A DNA stretch of 5,567 nt from a virus (lineage: Duplodnaviria; Heunggongvirae; Uroviricota; Caudoviricetes): IMG/VR virus record IMGVR_UViG_2681813261_000015, one strand, 5' to 3'. The notes under the pieces were generated by a model that saw only the letters and a program-made list of their open reading frames with translations, was not told where the DNA came from and searched no databases. Position 1 is the stretch's first letter. Each line of letters starts with the position of its first letter. Of this stretch, positions 168 to 5,567 are shown piece after piece. Made by a program: the position numbers and the translations under genes.

Positions 168-425
168 TTGAACAACCAGACAATGACTTTTACCCCTGAA
201 CAATTGCGTAAACACGCGCAGGAAATGCTGCGTCATGCTGAACAACTCGAAAAAACGGGCATAACAAAAGACGCTATCCGTAAAGATATGGTACCCGCGC
301 TTCGGGAACTGATGCAGGCGAAGCATCGCGCACAGAAAGCAGTAGATGAGCTGGTGGACTGTGTGGCAGAGCTGGAAACCAGAGTCGGAAAGTTTGAAAA
401 ACTGGTGCAGGAGGTGCTGCGCTGA
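168..425 (+). CDS. hypothetical small phage protein (nin-region), predicted helical
   Basis: 85-aa ORF starting at TTG 168 with GGAG at 157-160 seven nt upstream; alternative in-frame ATG at 183 has no obvious SD. Stop TGA 423-425 overlaps the rusA ATG at 425-427. No family recognised from memory. Confidence 0.55.
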   Translation: MNNQTMTFTPEQLRKHAQEMLRHAEQLEKTGITKDAIRKDMVPALRELMQAKHRAQKAVDELVDCVAELETRVGKFEKLVQEVLR

Positions 426-799
426 TGCGCCATGAGTTTATTTTACCTTATCCGCCGACGGTGAATACTTACTGGCGACGTCGTGACAACACATATTTTG
501 TATCAAAAGCCGGTGAGCGTTATCGCCGGGATGTGGCGCTTATTGTCCGTCAGCAGCGACTGAAATTAAGCCTGTCCGGAAGACTGGCGATAAAGATTAT
601 TGCAGAGCCACCGGATAAGCGCCGTCGTGACCTGGACAATATCCTGAAAGCACCACTGGATGCACTGACACATGCGGGAGTGTTAATGGACGATGAGCAG
701 TTTGATGAAATCAATATCGTTCGTGGTCAGCCAGTATCTGGTGGACGTCTGGGGGTGAAGATTTACCCCATAATGCATGAAGAGCAGGTCAAAAAATGA
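425..799 (+). CDS. rusA: crossover junction endodeoxyribonuclease RusA (Holliday junction resolvase)
   Basis: 124-aa product carrying LPYPPTVNTYW, RRRDLDN and DALTHAG...DDEQ motifs, which match the RusA family as I recall E. coli RusA (..LPWPPSNNRYY.., ..[20 protein letters not shown]..). Stop TGA 797-799 overlaps the Q start ATG 796-798. Confidence 0.9.
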   Translation: MRHEFILPYPPTVNTYWRRRDNTYFVSKAGERYRRDVALIVRQQRLKLSLSGRLAIKIIAEPPDKRRRDLDNILKAPLDALTHAGVLMDDEQFDEINIVRGQPVSGGRLGVKIYPIMHEEQVKK

Positions 800-1617
800 A
801 ACTGGAAGATTTACCGAAATACTACTCCCCAAAATCCCCTTGCCTGACCGATGCATCGGCCTCAACGTCAAAAGATGCGCTGAGTATCACTGATGTGATG
901 GCCGCGCAGGGCATGACACAGAATCGGGCTGAGATGGGGTTTTCTGCGTTCCTGGGGAAAATGGGCATCAGTATGAATGACAGGGCGCGGGCAACAGAAT
1001 TACTGGCAGATTATGCACTCAGTCGGTGCGATCGTGTGGCGGCGTTGAGAAAACTTCCGGCAGAAATAAAACCGGTAGTGATGCGCATTATGGCTTCGTA
1101 CGCTTTTGAGGATTATGCCCGCAGCGCAGCGAGTAAAAAGCAGTGCCCTTGTTGCTATGGGGAAAAATTTATTGAAAGCGTAGTTTTTACAAACAAGGTC
1201 CAGTATCCGGATGGTAAGCCGCCGGTATGGGCAAAGTGTACGAAAGGTGTGTATCCGTCTTACTGGGAAGAATGGAAAAAAGTCAGGGAGGTGGTAAAAG
1301 TTGCCTGTCCGGAGTGTGGCGGAAAGGGTGAGGTTTCCACCGCCTGTAAGGATTGCCGTGGGCGTGGTGTCGCCATTCATCGTGAAGAGTCGGTAAAACG
1401 TGGTATGCCTGTTATCAGAGACTGCCAGCGTTGTGGTGGTCGTGGCTATGAAAGACTACCATCAACGGAGGCATTTAATGCTATATGCGAGGTGACAAAC
1501 CAGATAACACGCGCGTCATGGGAAAAAACAGTTAAGAAATTTTATGATGCGCTGGTGACCCGGTTTGATATTGAAGAAGCATGGGCTGAGCGGCAGTTAA
1601 AAAAGGTAACTAGGTAA
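796..1617 (+). CDS. Q: late-gene antitermination protein Q (lambda Q family, enlarged variant)
   Basis: 273-aa product. The N-terminal half aligns with lambda Q as recalled (MKLEDLPKYYSPKSP...SITDVMAAQGM... versus MRLESVAKFHSPKSP...SGTDVMAAMGM...), and the C-terminus carries the conserved ...LYDALV.. region. Four CxxC pairs are present (CPCC, CPEC, CKDC, CQRC). It sits directly upstream of a pR'-like promoter. Confidence 0.88.
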   Translation: MKLEDLPKYYSPKSPCLTDASASTSKDALSITDVMAAQGMTQNRAEMGFSAFLGKMGISMNDRARATELLADYALSRCDRVAALRKLPAEIKPVVMRIMASYAFEDYARSAASKKQCPCCYGEKFIESVVFTNKVQYPDGKPPVWAKCTKGVYPSYWEEWKKVREVVKVACPECGGKGEVSTACKDCRGRGVAIHREESVKRGMPVIRDCQRCGGRGYERLPSTEAFNAICEVTNQITRASWEKTVKKFYDALVTRFDIEEAWAERQLKKVTR

Positions 1618-1622
1618 CAAGG

Positions 1623-1662
1623 TTGATTTTTCCGGAATCTGTGGTAAATTCGTCATAACGAT
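1623..1662 (+). promoter_or_regulatory. late promoter pR'-like with sigma70-dependent pause element (candidate Q-utilisation region)
   Basis: -35 TTGATT (1623-1628), 16-nt spacer, -10 TAAATT (1645-1650), 6 nt, then the -10-like AACGAT (1657-1662). The -10 hexamer, the spacing to AACGAT and the AACGAT element itself match lambda pR' as I recall it (TAAATT-TGACTC-AACGAT). Lies immediately downstream of Q. Confidence 0.6.
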
Positions 1663-1697
1663 GGGCGTTTTATGCCTGACGTTAGAAGAGTTTCTAC

Positions 1698-1723
1698 AAC
1701 CCGCCGCCGAGCGGGTTTTTTAT
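1698..1723 (+). terminator. Rho-independent terminator (tR'-like, ends a short pR' leader transcript)
   Basis: Stem CCCGC (1700-1704) / GCGGG (1711-1715) with 6-nt loop, extended by two A-U pairs, followed by TTTTTTAT (1716-1723). Lies about 65 nt downstream of the predicted pR' start. Confidence 0.6.
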
Positions 1724-1841
1724 GACTGAAATCGCGTCAGTACAGTAAACGCGCTGGTGGCGGTGAATACCTGTCTTTCAGCTTGCTGGCTTTTTCGACA
1801 AGAGTTATTGGTGTGTCACGTTAACCGGAAAAGGAAAAGAC

Positions 1842-2039
1842 ATGCTAAAACAGCAGGATATGACAGAAACCGCCAGAGTGGTGTTTAATGAATTAAGCGT
1901 TACCGAACCGGCGACAGTCGGGGAGATAGCGCAGAATACTTACCTTTCACGCGAACGCTGCCAGTTAATACTGACCCAGCTGGTTATGGCGGGTCTGGCA
2001 GACTATCAGTTCGGTTGTTACAGACGCCTTCCGCAGTGA
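1842..2039 (+). CDS. small hypothetical protein, possible winged-helix/HTH DNA-binding protein
   Basis: 65-aa ORF with ATG at 1842 and SD AAGGA (1832-1836) 5 nt upstream. The segment ...PATVGEIAQNTYLSRERCQLILTQLVMAGLA.. resembles a helix-turn-helix. The stop codon sits inside a terminator stem. Confidence 0.5.
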   Translation: MLKQQDMTETARVVFNELSVTEPATVGEIAQNTYLSRERCQLILTQLVMAGLADYQFGCYRRLPQ

Positions 2040-2053
2040 AGGCTTTTTTATTT
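2026..2053 (+). terminator. Rho-independent terminator
   Basis: Stem GCCTTC (2026-2031) / GAAGGC (2038-2043) with 6-nt loop, followed by TTTTTTATTT (2044-2053). Overlaps the stop codon of ORF 1842..2039. Confidence 0.6.
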
Positions 2054-2066
2054 GTGGTAAATGGGC

Positions 2067-2097
2067 GGCTGGTGGGTGTTAGGGGCACCCACCAGCC
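2067..2097. repeat. perfect 12-bp inverted repeat (stable hairpin or protein-binding palindrome) in the leader of the methyltransferase gene
   Basis: GGCTGGTGGGTG (2067-2078), 7-nt loop TTAGGGG, CACCCACCAGCC (2086-2097). All 12 pairs are Watson-Crick. No U-tract follows. Confidence 0.5.
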
Positions 2098-2189
2098 ATC
2101 TGCTCATGCGTTGGGTTCACAAGCAAACCTCAGGCCCACTGCTTTGCGCAAAAGCAGAATGAGCCTATCAGAGACAGGCTTAATGATCC

Positions 2190-3248
2190 ATGCTTAATAC
2201 TGTAAAAATATCCAGTTGTGAGTTAATCAACGCCGACTGCCTGGAATTTATCCGGTCGTTACCCGAAAATTCTGTTGACCTGATAGTCACGGACCCGCCG
2301 TACTTTAAAGTGAAGCCTGAGGGCTGGGATAACCAGTGGAAGGGCGACGATGATTACCTGAAGTGGCTGGACCAGTGTCTGGCGCAGTTCTGGCGGGTGC
2401 TGAAACCTGCCGGAAGTCTTTACCTGTTCTGTGGTCATCGCCTGGCATCTGATATCGAAATCATGATGCGTGAACGCTTCAGTGTGCTGAACCATATTAT
2501 CTGGGCGAAGCCGTCCGGACGCTGGAACGGATGCAACAAGGAAAGCCTGCGGGCGTATTTCCCCGCCACAGAGCGCATTCTGTTCGCGGAACATTATCAG
2601 GGGCCGTATCGTCCGAAAGATGCCGGGTATGCGGCGAAGGGCAGTGCACTGAAACAGCATGTGATGGCCCCGCTGATTTCTTACTTTCGTGATGCGCGAG
2701 CTGCCCTGGGGATAACGGCAAAACAGATTGCAGATGCCACAGGAAAGAAAAACATGGTGTCGCACTGGTTCAGTGCCGGTCAGTGGCAGTTGCCGAATGA
2801 AAGCGATTATCTGAAATTACAGGCGCTGTTTGCCCGGGTGGCAGAAGAGAAGCATCGGCGTGGTGAACTGGAAAAGCTCCACCACCAGCTGGTGGATACG
2901 TATACCTCACTGAACCGGCAGTATGCGGAGCTGCTGAGTGAATATAAACATCTGCGGCGGTATTTTGGCGTGACGGTGCAGGTGCCGTATACCGATGTGT
3001 GGACGCATAAACCGGTGCAGTTCTATCCCGGGAAACATCCGTGCGAAAAACCGGCAGAAATGCTGCAGCAGATAATCAGCGCTAGCAGTCGTCCGGGTGA
3101 CCTGATTGCAGATTTTTTCATGGGGTTGGGTTCGACAGTGAAAGCGGCACTGGCGCTCGGGCGTCGTGCAATTGGCGTTGAGCTGGAGACTGAACGTTTT
3201 GAGCAGACGGTTCGGGAAGTACAGGATTTAGTCAGCCAGAACGGATGA
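2190..3248 (+). CDS. DNA methyltransferase, beta-class (N6-adenine/N4-cytosine family; DPPY motif suggests N6-adenine)
   Basis: 352-aa product with catalytic motif IV (VTDPPYF) near the N-terminus and AdoMet motif I (DFFMGLGST) near the C-terminus, i.e. the circularly permuted beta-class order. A ~150-aa central insert contains an HTH-like segment (ITAKQIADATGK) and is probably the target-recognition domain. No restriction endonuclease gene is adjacent. Confidence 0.88.
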   Translation: MLNTVKISSCELINADCLEFIRSLPENSVDLIVTDPPYFKVKPEGWDNQWKGDDDYLKWLDQCLAQFWRVLKPAGSLYLFCGHRLASDIEIMMRERFSVLNHIIWAKPSGRWNGCNKESLRAYFPATERILFAEHYQGPYRPKDAGYAAKGSALKQHVMAPLISYFRDARAALGITAKQIADATGKKNMVSHWFSAGQWQLPNESDYLKLQALFARVAEEKHRRGELEKLHHQLVDTYTSLNRQYAELLSEYKHLRRYFGVTVQVPYTDVWTHKPVQFYPGKHPCEKPAEMLQQIISASSRPGDLIADFFMGLGSTVKAALALGRRAIGVELETERFEQTVREVQDLVSQNG

Positions 3249-3288
3249 TATTGAAGAATTAATTACGCGTCGTTATTATGCGGCTCCC

Positions 3289-3364
3289 GGCCCTTTAGCT
3301 CAGTGGTGAGAGCGAGCGACTCATAATCGCCAGGTCGCTGGTTCAAATCCAGCAAGGGCCACCA
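3289..3364 (+). tRNA. ileZ: tRNA-Ile2 (anticodon CAU, ileX/ileZ-like; formally Met by anticodon)
   Basis: Hand-folded cloverleaf: acceptor GGCCCTT/AAGGGCC, D-stem GCTC/GAGC, anticodon loop CTCATAA, T-arm GCTGG-TTCAAAT-CCAGC, encoded CCA. Near-identical in layout to E. coli tRNA-Ile2 as recalled. Symbol assigned from the Q-tRNA gene order known from Stx phages. Confidence 0.85.
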
Positions 3365-3371
3365 TCACATA

Positions 3372-3448
3372 CCGCCATTAGCTCATCAGGAAAGAGCGCC
3401 AGCCTTCGAAGCTGGCTGCGCGGGGTTCAAGTCCCCGATGGCGGTCCA
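3372..3448 (+). tRNA. argN: tRNA-Arg (anticodon UCG)
   Basis: Hand-folded cloverleaf: acceptor CCGCCAT/ATGGCGG, D-stem GCTC/GAGC, anticodon stem CCAGC/GCTGG with loop CTTCGAA, T-arm CGGGG-TTCAAGT-CCCCG, encoded CCA. Symbol assigned by gene order only. Confidence 0.8.
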
Positions 3449-3461
3449 TTATCTGCATCAT

Positions 3462-3538
3462 GCGTTGTTAGCTCAGCCGGACAGAGCAATTGCCTTCTAA
3501 GCAATCGGTCACTGGTTCGAATCCAGTACAGCGCGCCA
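3462..3538 (+). tRNA. argO: tRNA-Arg (anticodon UCU, decodes rare AGA)
   Basis: Hand-folded cloverleaf: acceptor GCGTTGT/ACAGCGC (one G-U pair), D-stem GCTC/GAGC, anticodon stem ATTGC/GCAAT with loop CTTCTAA, T-arm ACTGG-TTCGAAT-CCAGT, encoded CCA. Symbol assigned by gene order only. Confidence 0.8.
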
Positions 3539-3648
3539 TATTCATTCTTCCAGATTCCTTCCGGCAGAGCCTTATACTGAAATATACCTGGCTCAGGATA
3601 TTGTTGAAAATATTTTATGTTTGTCAAAAATAAAAGTTCTGTTAAGTA

Positions 3649-4002
3649 TTGATTGAGTGTTTGTTATACGGTCTAATGGTTTTTTCAGCATTAAATATTT
3701 ATCATTCATATGGTGTGGGTAGAGTGAATATTGATGAGGCGTCGGGGTGTTTCATCCTTAGGCAGCGTATTGATATAGTCAATGCAGCACGAGCAAAGGC
3801 CTTCAGCCGTTTGACAGTTTTGTTCTGTACTCCTGATCGTCTTTCGGGAAGAGACGTTATTATTCTGAATAGTGATGCTATACAGAGGGTTTGCGATGAG
3901 TTCATGGTTGCTAATTCAGAATTATTTGCTCTTGTTCAGGAGTACAACAGAATAGCCAGGACCTGTGGTATGGATGAACTTCGGATTACTCATCTGGGGT
4001 AG
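3649..4002 (+). CDS. orphan hypothetical protein in AT-rich cargo DNA (start uncertain)
   Basis: 117-aa ORF whose first codon is TTG at 3649; first in-frame ATG is at 3676. No convincing SD at either. The region is visibly AT-rich compared with the flanking phage genes. No domain recognised. Confidence 0.35.
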   Translation: MIECLLYGLMVFSALNIYHSYGVGRVNIDEASGCFILRQRIDIVNAARAKAFSRLTVLFCTPDRLSGRDVIILNSDAIQRVCDEFMVANSELFALVQEYNRIARTCGMDELRITHLG

Positions 4003-4322
4003 ATACATATCTGGATTATCACCTGTTACGGTAAAAAGTGATTGCTTACTGTTTTTGTGAATGGCATTGCAGCAGCCGGATAATGTCAGTGCTGGCTGAC
4101 GGTGTGCTGGTGGCGGGTGTGGTGGTTGTTGCTTTCCCGTTGCTGAAAAAGAAAACGCCAGACTGTTAGCCGGGTATCAGTTAGCGGGAGAAATTTTTAA
4201 ATACTTCACAATTCAGGCGGTTGACTGTTGTCTGGTTTGCGGGGAGTTTGTTAAAAGAAACTGGCATGGTGAATCCCCCTGTGCGGAGGGGCAATCAGCG
4301 AGTAGGTATATGGGATAATCGC

Positions 4323-4420
4323 GGATTCAGGTGCTGGTACTGAATTCACCGGGAGGCACCCGGCATCATGCAATGGCACATAGCGCCACTCTCCAGCCCT
4401 CTCCGGAGGGGCTTTTCTGT
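4323..4420 (+). ncRNA. candidate small structured RNA, unit A of a tandem paralogous array
   Basis: Hairpin 1 at 4323-4347 (8-bp stem with one G-U, 9-nt loop); hairpin 2 at 4349-4363 (CCGGG/CCCGG); terminator stem-loop CCCTC-TCCG-GAGGG at 4397-4410 followed by CTTTTCTGT. An extended -10-like element TGgGATAAT (4311-4319) would place the transcript start near 4326. No ORF of 60 aa or more overlaps. Confidence 0.35.
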
Positions 4421-4547
4421 GCCGGATACATCACAGTTTCTGGAACCTTAGGTACTACAGTATCAGTCAGGGTGCTATATTTTCAGATGTGATGAAAGCC
4501 TGTCAGCAGGCAGGGCGTATCGGAAATGACCCAGTAGAGAAAACGTT

Positions 4548-4635
4548 GACTCAGATACCGGTGCTGAGTTACCGGGAAACCGGCATCACATGACCGCTAT
4601 CCTTCCAGGCCCATCCGCTCCGGTGGGCCTTTTTA
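4548..4635 (+). ncRNA. candidate small structured RNA, unit B (paralogue of unit A)
   Basis: Hairpin 1' at 4548-4570 (7-bp stem, 9-nt loop); hairpin 2' CCGG-GAAA-CCGG at 4572-4583 (GNRA tetraloop); strong terminator GGCCCA...TGGGCC at 4608-4629 followed by TTTTTACTG. The arms align with unit A and show one compensatory base-pair change (T-A in A, C-G in B). No clear promoter upstream. Confidence 0.35.
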
Positions 4636-4676
4636 CTGCAGAAAACAGGTTCCCCGTTAAATGCTATGTTGCTCAC

Positions 4677-4757
4677 AATTCAGNNNNNNNNNNNNNNNNN
4701 NNNNNNNNNNNNNNNNNNNNCCCTCTCCGGAGGGGCTGTTTATATTGATTTTGTCAG
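4677..4757 (+). ncRNA. candidate unit C of the same array, core masked by N-run
   Basis: Starts with AATTCAG (4677-4683), the same left arm as hairpin 1 of unit A. It is preceded by an extended -10-like TGcTATGTT (4662-4670). After the Ns comes CCCTCTCCGGAGGGGC (4721-4736), identical to the unit A terminator hairpin, followed by a T-rich tail. Confidence 0.25.
4684..4720. other. run of 37 ambiguous bases (N); masked or unresolved sequence
   Basis: Literal n characters in the input. Falls inside the repeat array, consistent with an assembly gap or collapse caused by the repeats. Confidence 0.95.
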
Positions 4758-4769
4758 ATGTGAGTAAAC

Positions 4770-4803
4770 TCCTTATGGACTTTGTTGTTTTAGTCCATAA
4801 GGA
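4770..4803. repeat. perfect 12-bp inverted repeat with 10-nt loop at the 3' end of the minus-strand ORF
   Basis: TCCTTATGGACT (4770-4781), loop TTGTTGTTTT, AGTCCATAAGGA (4792-4803). All 12 pairs are Watson-Crick. Overlaps the stop codon (TAA, complement of 4773-4775) of ORF 4773..5108. Confidence 0.5.
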
Positions 4804-5108
4804 CATATTTGCAGAGTGCAACGGTTATTAAAGCATTCATTCAATACGTTATCTGTATTTGTAGGGCATTCCTGGCTATTTTTGATTGAATTCCAGAATG
4901 TTTTATTGAATGGTACTACGTTGTAAATGGTTACAGGTAGCACTTTGTTATTGAGCATGATGCCTGTGTGAGTCAGTGTAAATATACTTTCAGGAGGTAA
5001 GAAAGCATCCGATTGATACCAGATTATTAATTTTATTTTACTCCATATGACTGAAAAAGATATTCCGCATGATGGCTGGATAACTGTATCAATCACAATC
5101 CACTTCAT
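4773..5108 (-). CDS. orphan hypothetical protein in AT-rich cargo DNA
   Basis: 111-aa ORF with ATG start (complement of 5106-5108) and a good SD, AAGGAA, 5 nt upstream on the minus strand (complement of 5114-5119). AT-rich codon usage. Convergent with the upstream cargo. No domain recognised. Confidence 0.4.
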
Positions 5109-5353
5109 TTAGTTTCCTTGTTTATGCCTTGCTGGTGATGTTCTGAAAAGTATAAATGATATTTTTGAATGTAAACCATAGAGCAGAATTATTTTTCTGA
5201 TGTTGTTTATTGTTTATTTAAATGCAGGGTGGTTTATATCTCGTCTTGTAGTTTATCCATGCATATCTGCTTGATAATCAGGTTTTTATTTAAGGTATGG
5301 TTTTGTGTTTTTTCTGTATTACATGTCAGGTATTTTAAAGAATTATTTTTCAG

Positions 5354-5542
5354 ATGGTGGAAAGAACCATGGCATTTAAACACTATGATGTTGTCAGGGC
5401 GGCGCCGCCGTCAGATCTTGCGGAAAAGCTGACACATAAACTGAAAGAGGGCTGGCAGCCGTTTGGTAGTCCGGTGGCCATAACCCCTTATACCCTGAGG
5501 TGTACTGGCAATAGCGGACACTACCATTTGTTCTTTTTTTAA
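5354..5542 (+). CDS. small conserved lambdoid late-region protein that typically precedes the lysis cassette (DUF1737-like, from memory)
   Basis: ORF with ATG at 5354; a more likely start is the in-frame ATG at 5369, with GGTGG 8 nt upstream. The motif ...KHYDVVRAAPPSDLAEKLTHKLKEGWQPFGSPVA... matches a small protein I recall immediately upstream of holin genes in E. coli lambdoid prophages. The C-terminus looks atypical. Confidence 0.65.
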   Translation: MVERTMAFKHYDVVRAAPPSDLAEKLTHKLKEGWQPFGSPVAITPYTLRCTGNSGHYHLFFF

Positions 5543-5567
5543 GCAGCCATCTGATGATATTTTTCCC

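Follow-up and report, generated by a model that had tools for sequence, protein, structure and literature searches.

A tandem array of STnc100-family small RNA genes with a divergent middle copy in the late region of a lambdoid prophage

What is encoded by the similar units that follow one another on one strand of this prophage, just ahead of iraM, and do they form a family of their own? A sequence-only reading of the window (the whole 5,567-nt stretch analysed here, from IMG/VR record IMGVR_UViG_2681813261_000015) had proposed a candidate novel small RNA family in the stx-equivalent cargo slot. Our analysis places the units at the late-region moron site of a lambdoid prophage and identifies the array as copies of a catalogued prophage sRNA family, STnc100, which is related to PasD and EcOnc27. 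What the locus adds is modestly new, namely a divergent, unannotated middle copy (unit B) and a fixed three-gene array, whereas its first copy (unit A) was already known.

The late region of the prophage and its array

The whole window consists of late-regulatory DNA from a lambdoid prophage (Table 1), with genes in the order Q, pR'/tR', methylase, tRNAs, ORF117, DUF3927, the array A-B-C, iraM and a truncated nanS-p, and with holin, lysozyme and Rz genes next in syntenic genomes. A pR'-like promoter lies 3' of Q, alongside the terminator at 1698-1717. Because Q and pR' lie 5' and the lysis genes 3', the array occupies the 'moron' region of the late operon, where each unit combines a gene with a terminator and a promoter-like element of putative activity and is thus, by definition, a moron cassette. 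The same position in Stx phages holds stx and then sRNA genes, one Stx-type phage carries Q, three tRNAs, STnc100 and nanS-p in that order, and the late-operon position of the units is kept across lambdoid phages. The neighbouring genes thus uphold the cargo site that had been proposed. The stretch 4003-4772, previously taken to be ORF-free, contains a real gene, that of the 43-aa DUF3927 protein.

Table 1. Features of the window (positions are those of the whole stretch; cells are empty where nothing was assigned).
Feature	Position	Strand	Basis or remark
RusA	425-799		Pfam
Antiterminator Q	796-1617		Pfam PF03589
tR', strong terminator	1698-1717		Terminator scan; 3' of Q and pR'-like promoter
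DNA methylase	2190-3248		Pfam
Three tRNAs	3289-3538
DUF3927 protein, 43 aa	4038-4169		Pfam
Unit A flank and putative promoter	4174-4263	+	TCACAATTCAG at 4206-4216; -35-like and -10-like elements
Unit A TTGTCT (-35-like)	4228-4233	+	Putative promoter
Unit A TTAAAA (-10-like)	4251-4256	+	17-nt spacer from -35-like; 7 nt to G4264
Unit A, STnc100-family sRNA gene	4264-4421	+	Rfam, custom covariance model, covariation, amplicon
Unit A P0	4264-4271/4364-4371		Closing helix; 5' strand GCAUGGUG; G4269.U4366
Unit A P1	4276-4280/4287-4291
Unit A variable linker	4292-4322
Unit A P3	4323-4330/4340-4347		Hairpin 1 of the sequence-only reading; 9-nt loop
Unit A P4	4349-4353/4359-4363		CCGGG-AGGCA-CCCGG
Unit A seed/spacer	4372-4394		Ends in GCGCCACUCUCC
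Unit A terminator	4395-4413		Tail UUUUCUGUG
Unit B extended -10-like TGcTATATT	4473-4481	+	5 nt before A4487; putative function
Unit B, divergent STnc100/PasD-superfamily paralogue	4487-4636	+	Rfam (sub-threshold), profile, custom model, fold
Unit B P0	4487-4494/4584-4591		5' strand AUGUGAUG
Unit B P1	4499-4504/4509-4514
Unit B P3	4547-4554/4564-4571		Hairpin 1 of the sequence-only reading; 9-nt loop
Unit B P4	4572-4575/4580-4583		CCGG-GAAA-CCGG
Unit B seed	4592-4606		GACCGCUAUCCUUCC
Unit B terminator	4607-4630		UUUUU tail
Unit C upstream flank	4651-4683	+	TTAAAT, then TGcTATGTT 4662-4670, then TCACAATTCAG 4673-4683
37-N run over most of unit C	4684-4720
Unit C terminator CCCTCTCCGGAGGGGC with interrupted T-tract TGTTTATATT	4721-4745	+	Repeat search, terminator scan
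B-type promoter/5'-end-like remnant, cut at iraM island junction	4748-4768	+	81% identity to 4477-4497
iraM (anti-adapter IraM)	4773-5108	-	RefSeq annotation in genomes matching 4721-5360
DUF1737/nanS-p esterase, gene start	5369-5542		Pfam; nanS-p truncated

Family membership and fold of the units

Unit A is a member of STnc100: Rfam cmscan matched 4235-4424 to RF02076 over the full length of the model with 122.5 bits (E 2.2e-27; gathering score 47), and a custom covariance model scored it at 116.6 bits. The published 93-bp STnc_100 qPCR amplicon, whose primers come from work on Shiga-toxigenic E. coli and which was detected by RT-qPCR (PMC12370729), corresponds to window positions 4265-4357 with zero mismatches, and this exact identity together with the Rfam match makes unit A a known RNA. 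The claim of novelty thereby falls, and by the very check that the sequence-only reading had put forward, since it had proposed giving up the idea of a new family upon a match to one already described. The RF02076 model starts 29 nt 5' of the putative start of unit A, so the true 5' end of the unit is uncertain. Folded alone, unit A gives a minimum-energy z of -0.4 that is uninformative because P1 and the terminator are able to cross-pair.

Unit B is a diverged STnc100 relative and no formal Rfam member, scoring 30.1 bits against RF02076 over 4463-4636 (E 9.5e-4), which is under the 47-bit gathering threshold; the B-type units of two other loci (L001 and L004) also went unreported at that threshold. 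A profile containing no B sequence nevertheless detects unit B at 4545-4637 (E 5.8e-6), so the homology is not circular, and the custom covariance model gives it 58.5 bits. All units can be aligned over ~215 nt, with a 5' domain common to PasD2; the homology of A and B starts at ~4174 and ~4460, respectively, 4174-4202 recurs 5' of unit B with 72% identity, and unit B is without the ~47-nt promoter segment of A-type units. The minimum-energy fold of unit B is the family architecture (z = -2.7), and compensatory double changes set it apart from A at three pairs of P0 and two of P3.

Each unit measures about 150-215 nt: a promoter-like element comes first, P0 then closes off three hairpins, and a short single-stranded seed leads to an intrinsic terminator. 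This extent differs from the boundaries first drawn, which began at 4300: homology begins about 60-130 nt 5' of there, with the flank alike from ~4174 and the RNA running from 4264, and only the 3' half of each unit had been caught. Likewise, the 'single-stranded spacer' with CATCA(C)ATG is actually the 3' strand of P0, and it covaries.

For covariation, 131 unit copies were recovered from 101 loci (62 unique full-length sequences, from one IMG/VR scan and four annotated genomes), and the primary test scored 43 aligned, distinct 5' domains on the Rfam-type fold (P0, P1, P3 and P4). This revealed 97.4% of cells paired and 12 pairs changing on both sides (five of eight in P0, six of eight in P3 and one in P1), values reached by 0 of 500 column shuffles, with slid-partner controls at 37-48% paired. 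The custom covariance model, built from the same alignment, found 110 copies in 100 of these sources, and the model-fitted alignment had 16 of 26 pairs changed on both sides, including all eight of P3; as a model-fitted alignment leans to structure, the 43-domain alignment was taken as primary. Across 43-48 distinct copies, the helices in A and B are supported by covariation.

Much of what had been noticed about the fold was borne out. Hairpin 1 with its 9-nt loop is P3 in both units, its compensatory change is real (T4326-A4344 in A versus C4550-G4568 in B, with a G.U pair kept as G4324.U4346 and G4548.U4570), and the outermost P3 pair covaries too (G4323-C4347 versus U4547-A4571). The GC hairpins CCGGG-AGGCA-CCCGG (4349-4363) and CCGG-GAAA-CCGG (4572-4583) are the P4 stem-loops. 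Selection on RNA structure rather than on coding holds as well, in that substitutions track base-pairing and ORF conservation is absent, and the alignment of homologues supports P0 and P3. The P4 stem-loop, with loop GGGAGGCACCC, is near-invariant, and so are loop and junction bases where the helices meet; conservation of P4 and the 5' scaffold beyond simple stability need hints at an additional function.

Upstream of most A-type copies, TTGYCT-N17-TTAAAA is conserved and ends 7 nt before GCAUGG. PasD-type copies have TTGAYT-N17-TTAAAA before a 5' end that was placed by RNA-seq coverage together with Northern size, and the PasD2 5' end falls at the GCAUGG equivalent of the unit A start. From such elements we infer the promoters and transcription start sites of the units. 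The extended -10-like elements pointed out previously, TGGGATAAT (4311-4319) and TGCTATGTT (4662-4670), are both present, but the first was rejected as the main promoter of unit A: it sits inside the RNA, 3' of the P0 5' strand, and the covariation of P0 means that 4264-4271 must be part of the functional RNA. A sigma-54 promoter near TGGCAC in the seed region was also discarded, inspection by eye having found no properly spaced GG-N10-GC.

Terminator-like sites number 12 in 1600-5400 against 3.6 +/- 1.6 in shuffles, and those at 4395-4413, 4607-4630 and 4721-4734 agree with the Rho-independent terminators that had been described for the units. Single-stranded C/U-rich segments adjoin the terminators, and the U-tails are short (UUUU then CUGUG in A; UUUUU in B). 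As judged from their sequence, these tails are shorter than those of typical strong Hfq binders, making another chaperone (ProQ, for example), or none, possible. The short U-tails and the near-invariant P4 stem-loop are features that a base-pairing sRNA model leaves unexplained.

Unit C, the A-B-A array and its reassorted seeds

That three homologous units stand in tandem had been recognised correctly insofar as the repeats are real and far beyond chance, but unit C had been misread and lies mostly behind Ns. The duplicated 16-mer CCCTCTCCGGAGGGGC was found at 4397-4412 and 4721-4736; however, the 'ATTCAG' at 4678-4683 that had been assigned to hairpin 1 of unit C belongs to the repeated flank TCACAATTCAG, whose copy at 4673-4683 exactly repeats 4206-4216. 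In 316 complete genomes, the counterpart of 4467-5000 exceeds it by 139 nt, which means that the 37 Ns take the place of ~176 nt, a full unit. In the other fetched loci, 179-205 nt separate the flank motif from the terminator core, and an exact 37-nt version of unit C had no match in IMG/VR. In strains 2D and DA33133 the flank runs into a complete third unit at this place, which in strain 2D folds into the family architecture; the junction from unit C terminator to iraM occurs also in DA33133 and in E. coli 042, the latter having just one unit next to this iraM flank. Short-read assemblies break at three-gene arrays, and probably did so at the N-run, which is most simply explained by an assembly break in the repeat, with a unique deletion as a conceivable alternative.

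The array is common in E. coli. Part of 4200-4683 is matched in 2718 of 5426 complete genomes, with 670 covering A and B, and A-B-A arrays are present in 673 of the 5426 (~12%). E. coli ATCC 11775 (DSM 30083) and NU14 are 99.6% identical to 4206-4683, and ATCC 11775 has unit B at 100% identity. Throughout IMG/VR, unit B is almost always the middle of A-B-A (at least 94 contigs; 94 clean cases), the exceptions being mostly truncated at the end of a contig. Arrays of two and of four A-type units also exist (loci L081 and L010), and unit B appears in five phage records as well. Seeds vary among the flanking A-type units, in various combinations. The Rfam threshold admits these flanking units, unlike B and PasD2; RefSeq annotates nothing at unit B in the 673 genomes matched. 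A scan of genome contigs with a 14-base pattern returned chance matches from unrelated phyla only.

The copies sort into ~25 classes by linker and ~20 by seed. For two of the linkers and two of the seeds, all four combinations were seen, which shows that recombination reassorts seed-plus-terminator modules onto the scaffold, and PasD-like 3' modules sit on STnc100 scaffolds elsewhere.

Such a setting could also hold a relic, with unit B, and possibly the whole array, being a decaying STnc100 duplicate between functional copies. Consistent with this, B-type units score under the Rfam threshold here and in L001 and L004, only two major B alleles (~100% and 90.6% identity) occur in the 673 complete E. 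coli genomes, unit B lacks the A-type promoter segment, and its near absence outside A-B-A is compatible with hitch-hiking in a recently spread module. We nonetheless regard decay as unlikely, given that all B helices are kept through compensation, as the five double changes in P0 and P3 attest, and that the family fold is its minimum-energy state. Furthermore, the two alleles differ mainly in P1 and the terminator and still form a hairpin at each, they are identical in seed and in TGcTATATT, and the best -10 element and the strongest terminator of the array are those of unit B.

Probable mode of action and relation to known systems

Our preferred reading, which we hold to be likely, is that the array comprises three independently transcribed, trans-acting base-pairing sRNAs with a shared scaffold and different seeds. 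Each gene would be transcribed from a sigma-70-type promoter-like element to an intrinsic terminator of its own, and because pR' transcripts should end at tR' in the lysogen, each unit would there yield a discrete RNA of ~150-180 nt, whereas upon induction Q-modified polymerase would read across the whole array. Holding the 5' end in P0 would stabilise the RNA. The C/U-rich single-stranded segment before the terminator (...GCGCCACUCUCC in A, GACCGCUAUCCUUCC in B), placed like the PasD seed, would pair with purine-rich sites, for example ribosome-binding sites, of mRNAs or other sRNAs with the help of Hfq, the roles of seed and Hfq being modelled on the relatives PasD and EcOnc27. It is by analogy that we infer start sites, Hfq dependence, trans-acting function and targets. 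Within the window, a seed-target scan predicted one strong duplex, between seed A and the SD/AUG of rusA (-29.1 kcal/mol), but the pairing did not recur in two other prophages that carry this seed, which leaves rusA an unconfirmed lead.

More tentatively, and as an extension that we consider possible rather than favoured, STnc100/PasD may be a modular platform in which a four-helix 5' scaffold receives recombined 3' seed-terminator cassettes, A-B-A being a fixed three-gene module and B an undescribed subfamily with its own promoter and targets. The P4 stem-loop of such a platform could possibly bind a protein or confer stability.

From pR'/tR' to the lysis genes, three intrinsic terminators follow one another, the position of the units in the late operon is conserved among lambdoid phages, and the near-invariant bases of loops and junction resemble those of a binding domain. 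These features would also suit units that act mainly in cis on the late operon, as a terminator stack or as processing, stability or sensor elements with the sRNAs as by-products. We think this quite improbable: tR' already lies 3' of pR', a promoter-like element on every unit would be needless for a pure terminator, and the relatives are stable RNAs that accumulate in association with Hfq and have trans partners. The sole alternative pairing, that of P1 with the terminator, is predicted in unit A and has no such complementarity in B and PasD2; a riboswitch-like switch was accordingly rejected as not conserved.

The original proposal of a previously undescribed small-RNA family has become very improbable. 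The Rfam threshold does miss unit B and PasD2, and RefSeq is blank at unit B, but unit A clearly belongs to RF02076, unit B is homologous to A by sequence and structure, this type of locus has been on record since 2014 and the link between PasD and STnc100 since 2026. Small protein genes on either strand (the 5'-proximal AUG ORF MVNPP..., a 53-aa ORF at 4331-4492 or a RefSeq minus-strand pseudogene frame) are hardly credible, for although an AUG stands at +3 in most copies, one EDL933 copy has elevated ribosome coverage in a RIBO-seq study and PGAP's minus-strand call is a partial pseudogene ('hypothetical protein'), conservation of the 5' ORF is confined to P0/P1 nucleotides, after which the frame continues for 8-59 codons or without a stop, its AUG is gone where P0 covaries (GCGUGG), A and B have no ORF in common, the 62 unique units have 56 different longest minus-strand open frames, and substitutions follow base-pairing, not codon patterns. 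A conserved coding gene in relatives, which would have told against the RNA interpretation, was searched for among the unit copies on both strands, and no conserved ORF was found.

For base-pairing sRNAs with exchangeable seeds, as we read the array, the practical value of these observations is limited but real, and the picture of the field is unchanged. Prophage sRNAs of this slot (AgvB, AsxR, StxS and PasD) rewire core regulation in pathogenic E. coli, and STnc100 is among the sRNAs most often annotated in bacterial genomes (PMC9029176). The widespread, unannotated B-type copy escapes Rfam-based annotation, and the apparent swapping of the 3' targeting cassette tells which segment to mutate.

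Transcription of relatives is documented. EDL933 has 11 transcribed STnc100 copies, STnc100_4 being Northern-positive (PMC5331693), and an STnc100 prediction 3' of stx2B overlaps EcOnc27/sRNA103, which is positive by Hfq-CRAC and Northern (PMC12711010, PMC7873438). In at least 8 Sakai prophages, Tree et al. 2014 described pairs of Hfq-binding sRNAs in the interval from PR' to the lysis genes (PMC4104026). Unit A has the same closing helix, hairpins and terminator as STnc100 (RF02076), and the family including EcOnc27/sRNA103 occupies the same slot, from late promoter and cargo to nanS-p and lysis genes, on the same late-operon strand. In contrast to the single copy with a convergent anti-sRNA of STnc100/EcOnc27, the window holds a same-strand three-gene array whose middle copy is too diverged for the Rfam threshold, and unit A may carry another seed than the stx2-linked copy does.

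PasD of EPEC is a structural homologue of STnc100 (2026 preprint, doi 10.64898/2026.05.13.724894), and PasD2, of 172 nt, was validated by Northern and RIL-seq with Hfq-dependent stability (PMC8550237). PasD1 and PasD2 (EPEC E2348/69; homologue of EcOnc13) share with the units a homologous 5' domain (GCAUGGUGAAUCC...), P1, P3 and the closing helix, and their synteny is identical, from DUF3927 gene to sRNA to SASA/nanS-p esterase gene downstream of Q, with PasD2 of E2348/69 lying between the DUF3927 and esterase genes as the window units do. Like unit B, PasD2 is under the Rfam STnc100 threshold. Unlike the window units, PasD is without P4 and has its own 3' region (seed UGUGAG) and a long-U-tail terminator, a module absent from the window, where the alignment with PasD is lost past the closing helix; PasD copies reportedly lie scattered, whereas those of the window are in tandem.

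The suggested kinship with EHEC prophage sRNAs and sponges stood in part, as the units are related to Hfq-bound prophage sRNAs but are not sponges of the AgvB/AsxR type, whose models (RF02702, RF02703) have no match in the window at E<=1. AgvB and AsxR share the moron site, the association with Hfq and the division into a conserved body and a variable targeting end. However, they are 51-60 nt long, lie convergently on the opposite strand and have a variable 5' and a conserved 3' end, whereas the units measure at least 150 nt on the late-operon strand; a convergent partner is absent from the window because the iraM island occupies its place. In OmrA/OmrB and PrrF1/PrrF2, too, paralogues sit side by side on one strand, and each gene has a promoter and a terminator to itself. 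They are core-genome pairs whose targets are largely shared, in contrast to the prophage-borne array described here, in which a 5' scaffold carries a variable 3' targeting part.

Array length and the iraM junction

Four tandem STnc100 units lie on one strand and adjoin tRNA genes in one IMG/VR contig (L010, 2265-3380), all four exceeding the Rfam threshold (77-132 bits), and arrays can therefore exceed three units. At a second IMG/VR locus (L044, 2748-4963), the B unit is cut off at about model position 116 and is followed after 1.9 kb by the next A-type unit (one resembling unit A of the window), an arrangement that suggests an insertion within the array, possibly of an IS element.

Our comparison of units revealed a short remnant at the array's 3' end that resembles unit B over its promoter and 5' terminus, and that, judged by this similarity, looks like a B-type unit cut off where the iraM island begins. 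This AT-rich island (4773-5350) is placed after the sRNA array and before the truncated DUF1737/nanS-p start (5369-5542), and its junction with the remnant is also found in E. coli 042 (L003, about 5515-5545). At the island's site, strain 2D has an intact esterase gene instead.

Features in the window and in strain 2D (locus L001)
Feature	Coordinates	Strand	Context
pR'-like promoter TTGATT-N16-TAAATT	within window 1621-1722		immediately after Q
Strong intrinsic terminator	window 1698-1717		after Q
117-aa ORF	window 3649-4002		between tRNA trio and DUF3927 gene
B-like remnant ATTTTGTCAGATGTGAGTAAA	window 4748-4768		directly 3' of unit C terminator; 81% identity to 4477-4497
iraM (anti-adapter protein; RefSeq name)	window 4773-5108	minus	
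Short sRNA-like gene, 3' end GCCCGCGTCTCCCAGCGCGGGCTTTTTTT	L001 5705-5760	minus	strain 2D

P4, the unit A allele and a predicted rusA pairing

Among about 40 distinct copies, the P4 stem-loop CCGGGAGGCACCCGG (4349-4363), one of the hairpins inside the closing helix P0, was near-invariant, including its loop, a constraint on the sequence itself; it contains a GGAGG motif, and further GGAGG motifs occur in P1 and the terminator. Unit A of the window carries a C-to-T change at 4366, giving a G.U pair in P0, together with a 1-nt deletion at 4397 in the terminator 5' arm (CCCTCTCC in place of CCCCTCTCC) that shortens the stem, and this same allele recurs in L044.

The unit A seed (4372-4395), the single-stranded segment between P0 and the terminator, is predicted to pair with 409-434, spanning the Shine-Dalgarno sequence and the AUG start codon of the prophage's own rusA gene. 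This duplex (-29.1 kcal/mol) was the top site in the window and was equalled by 2 of 2000 shuffled seeds. Because the pairing was not found in two other prophages with an identical seed (L001 and L003), it may be due to chance.

Flanking genes and known counterparts

Directly downstream of Q, Rfam gave a weak Trp_leader match (1621-1722; 21.8 bits, E 0.58), which probably reflects nothing more than the intrinsic terminator there. The 117-aa ORF, which had no match in Pfam, may be a cargo gene; it occupies the position that stxAB takes in Stx phages.

The sRNA-like gene of strain 2D is convergent with that strain's third unit and drew no Rfam AgvB/AsxR model call at threshold. This gene resembles the EPEC RIL-seq sRNA E2348C_1409.E2348C_1408.IGR, a homologue of EcOnc08/21/42; the window is without a counterpart.
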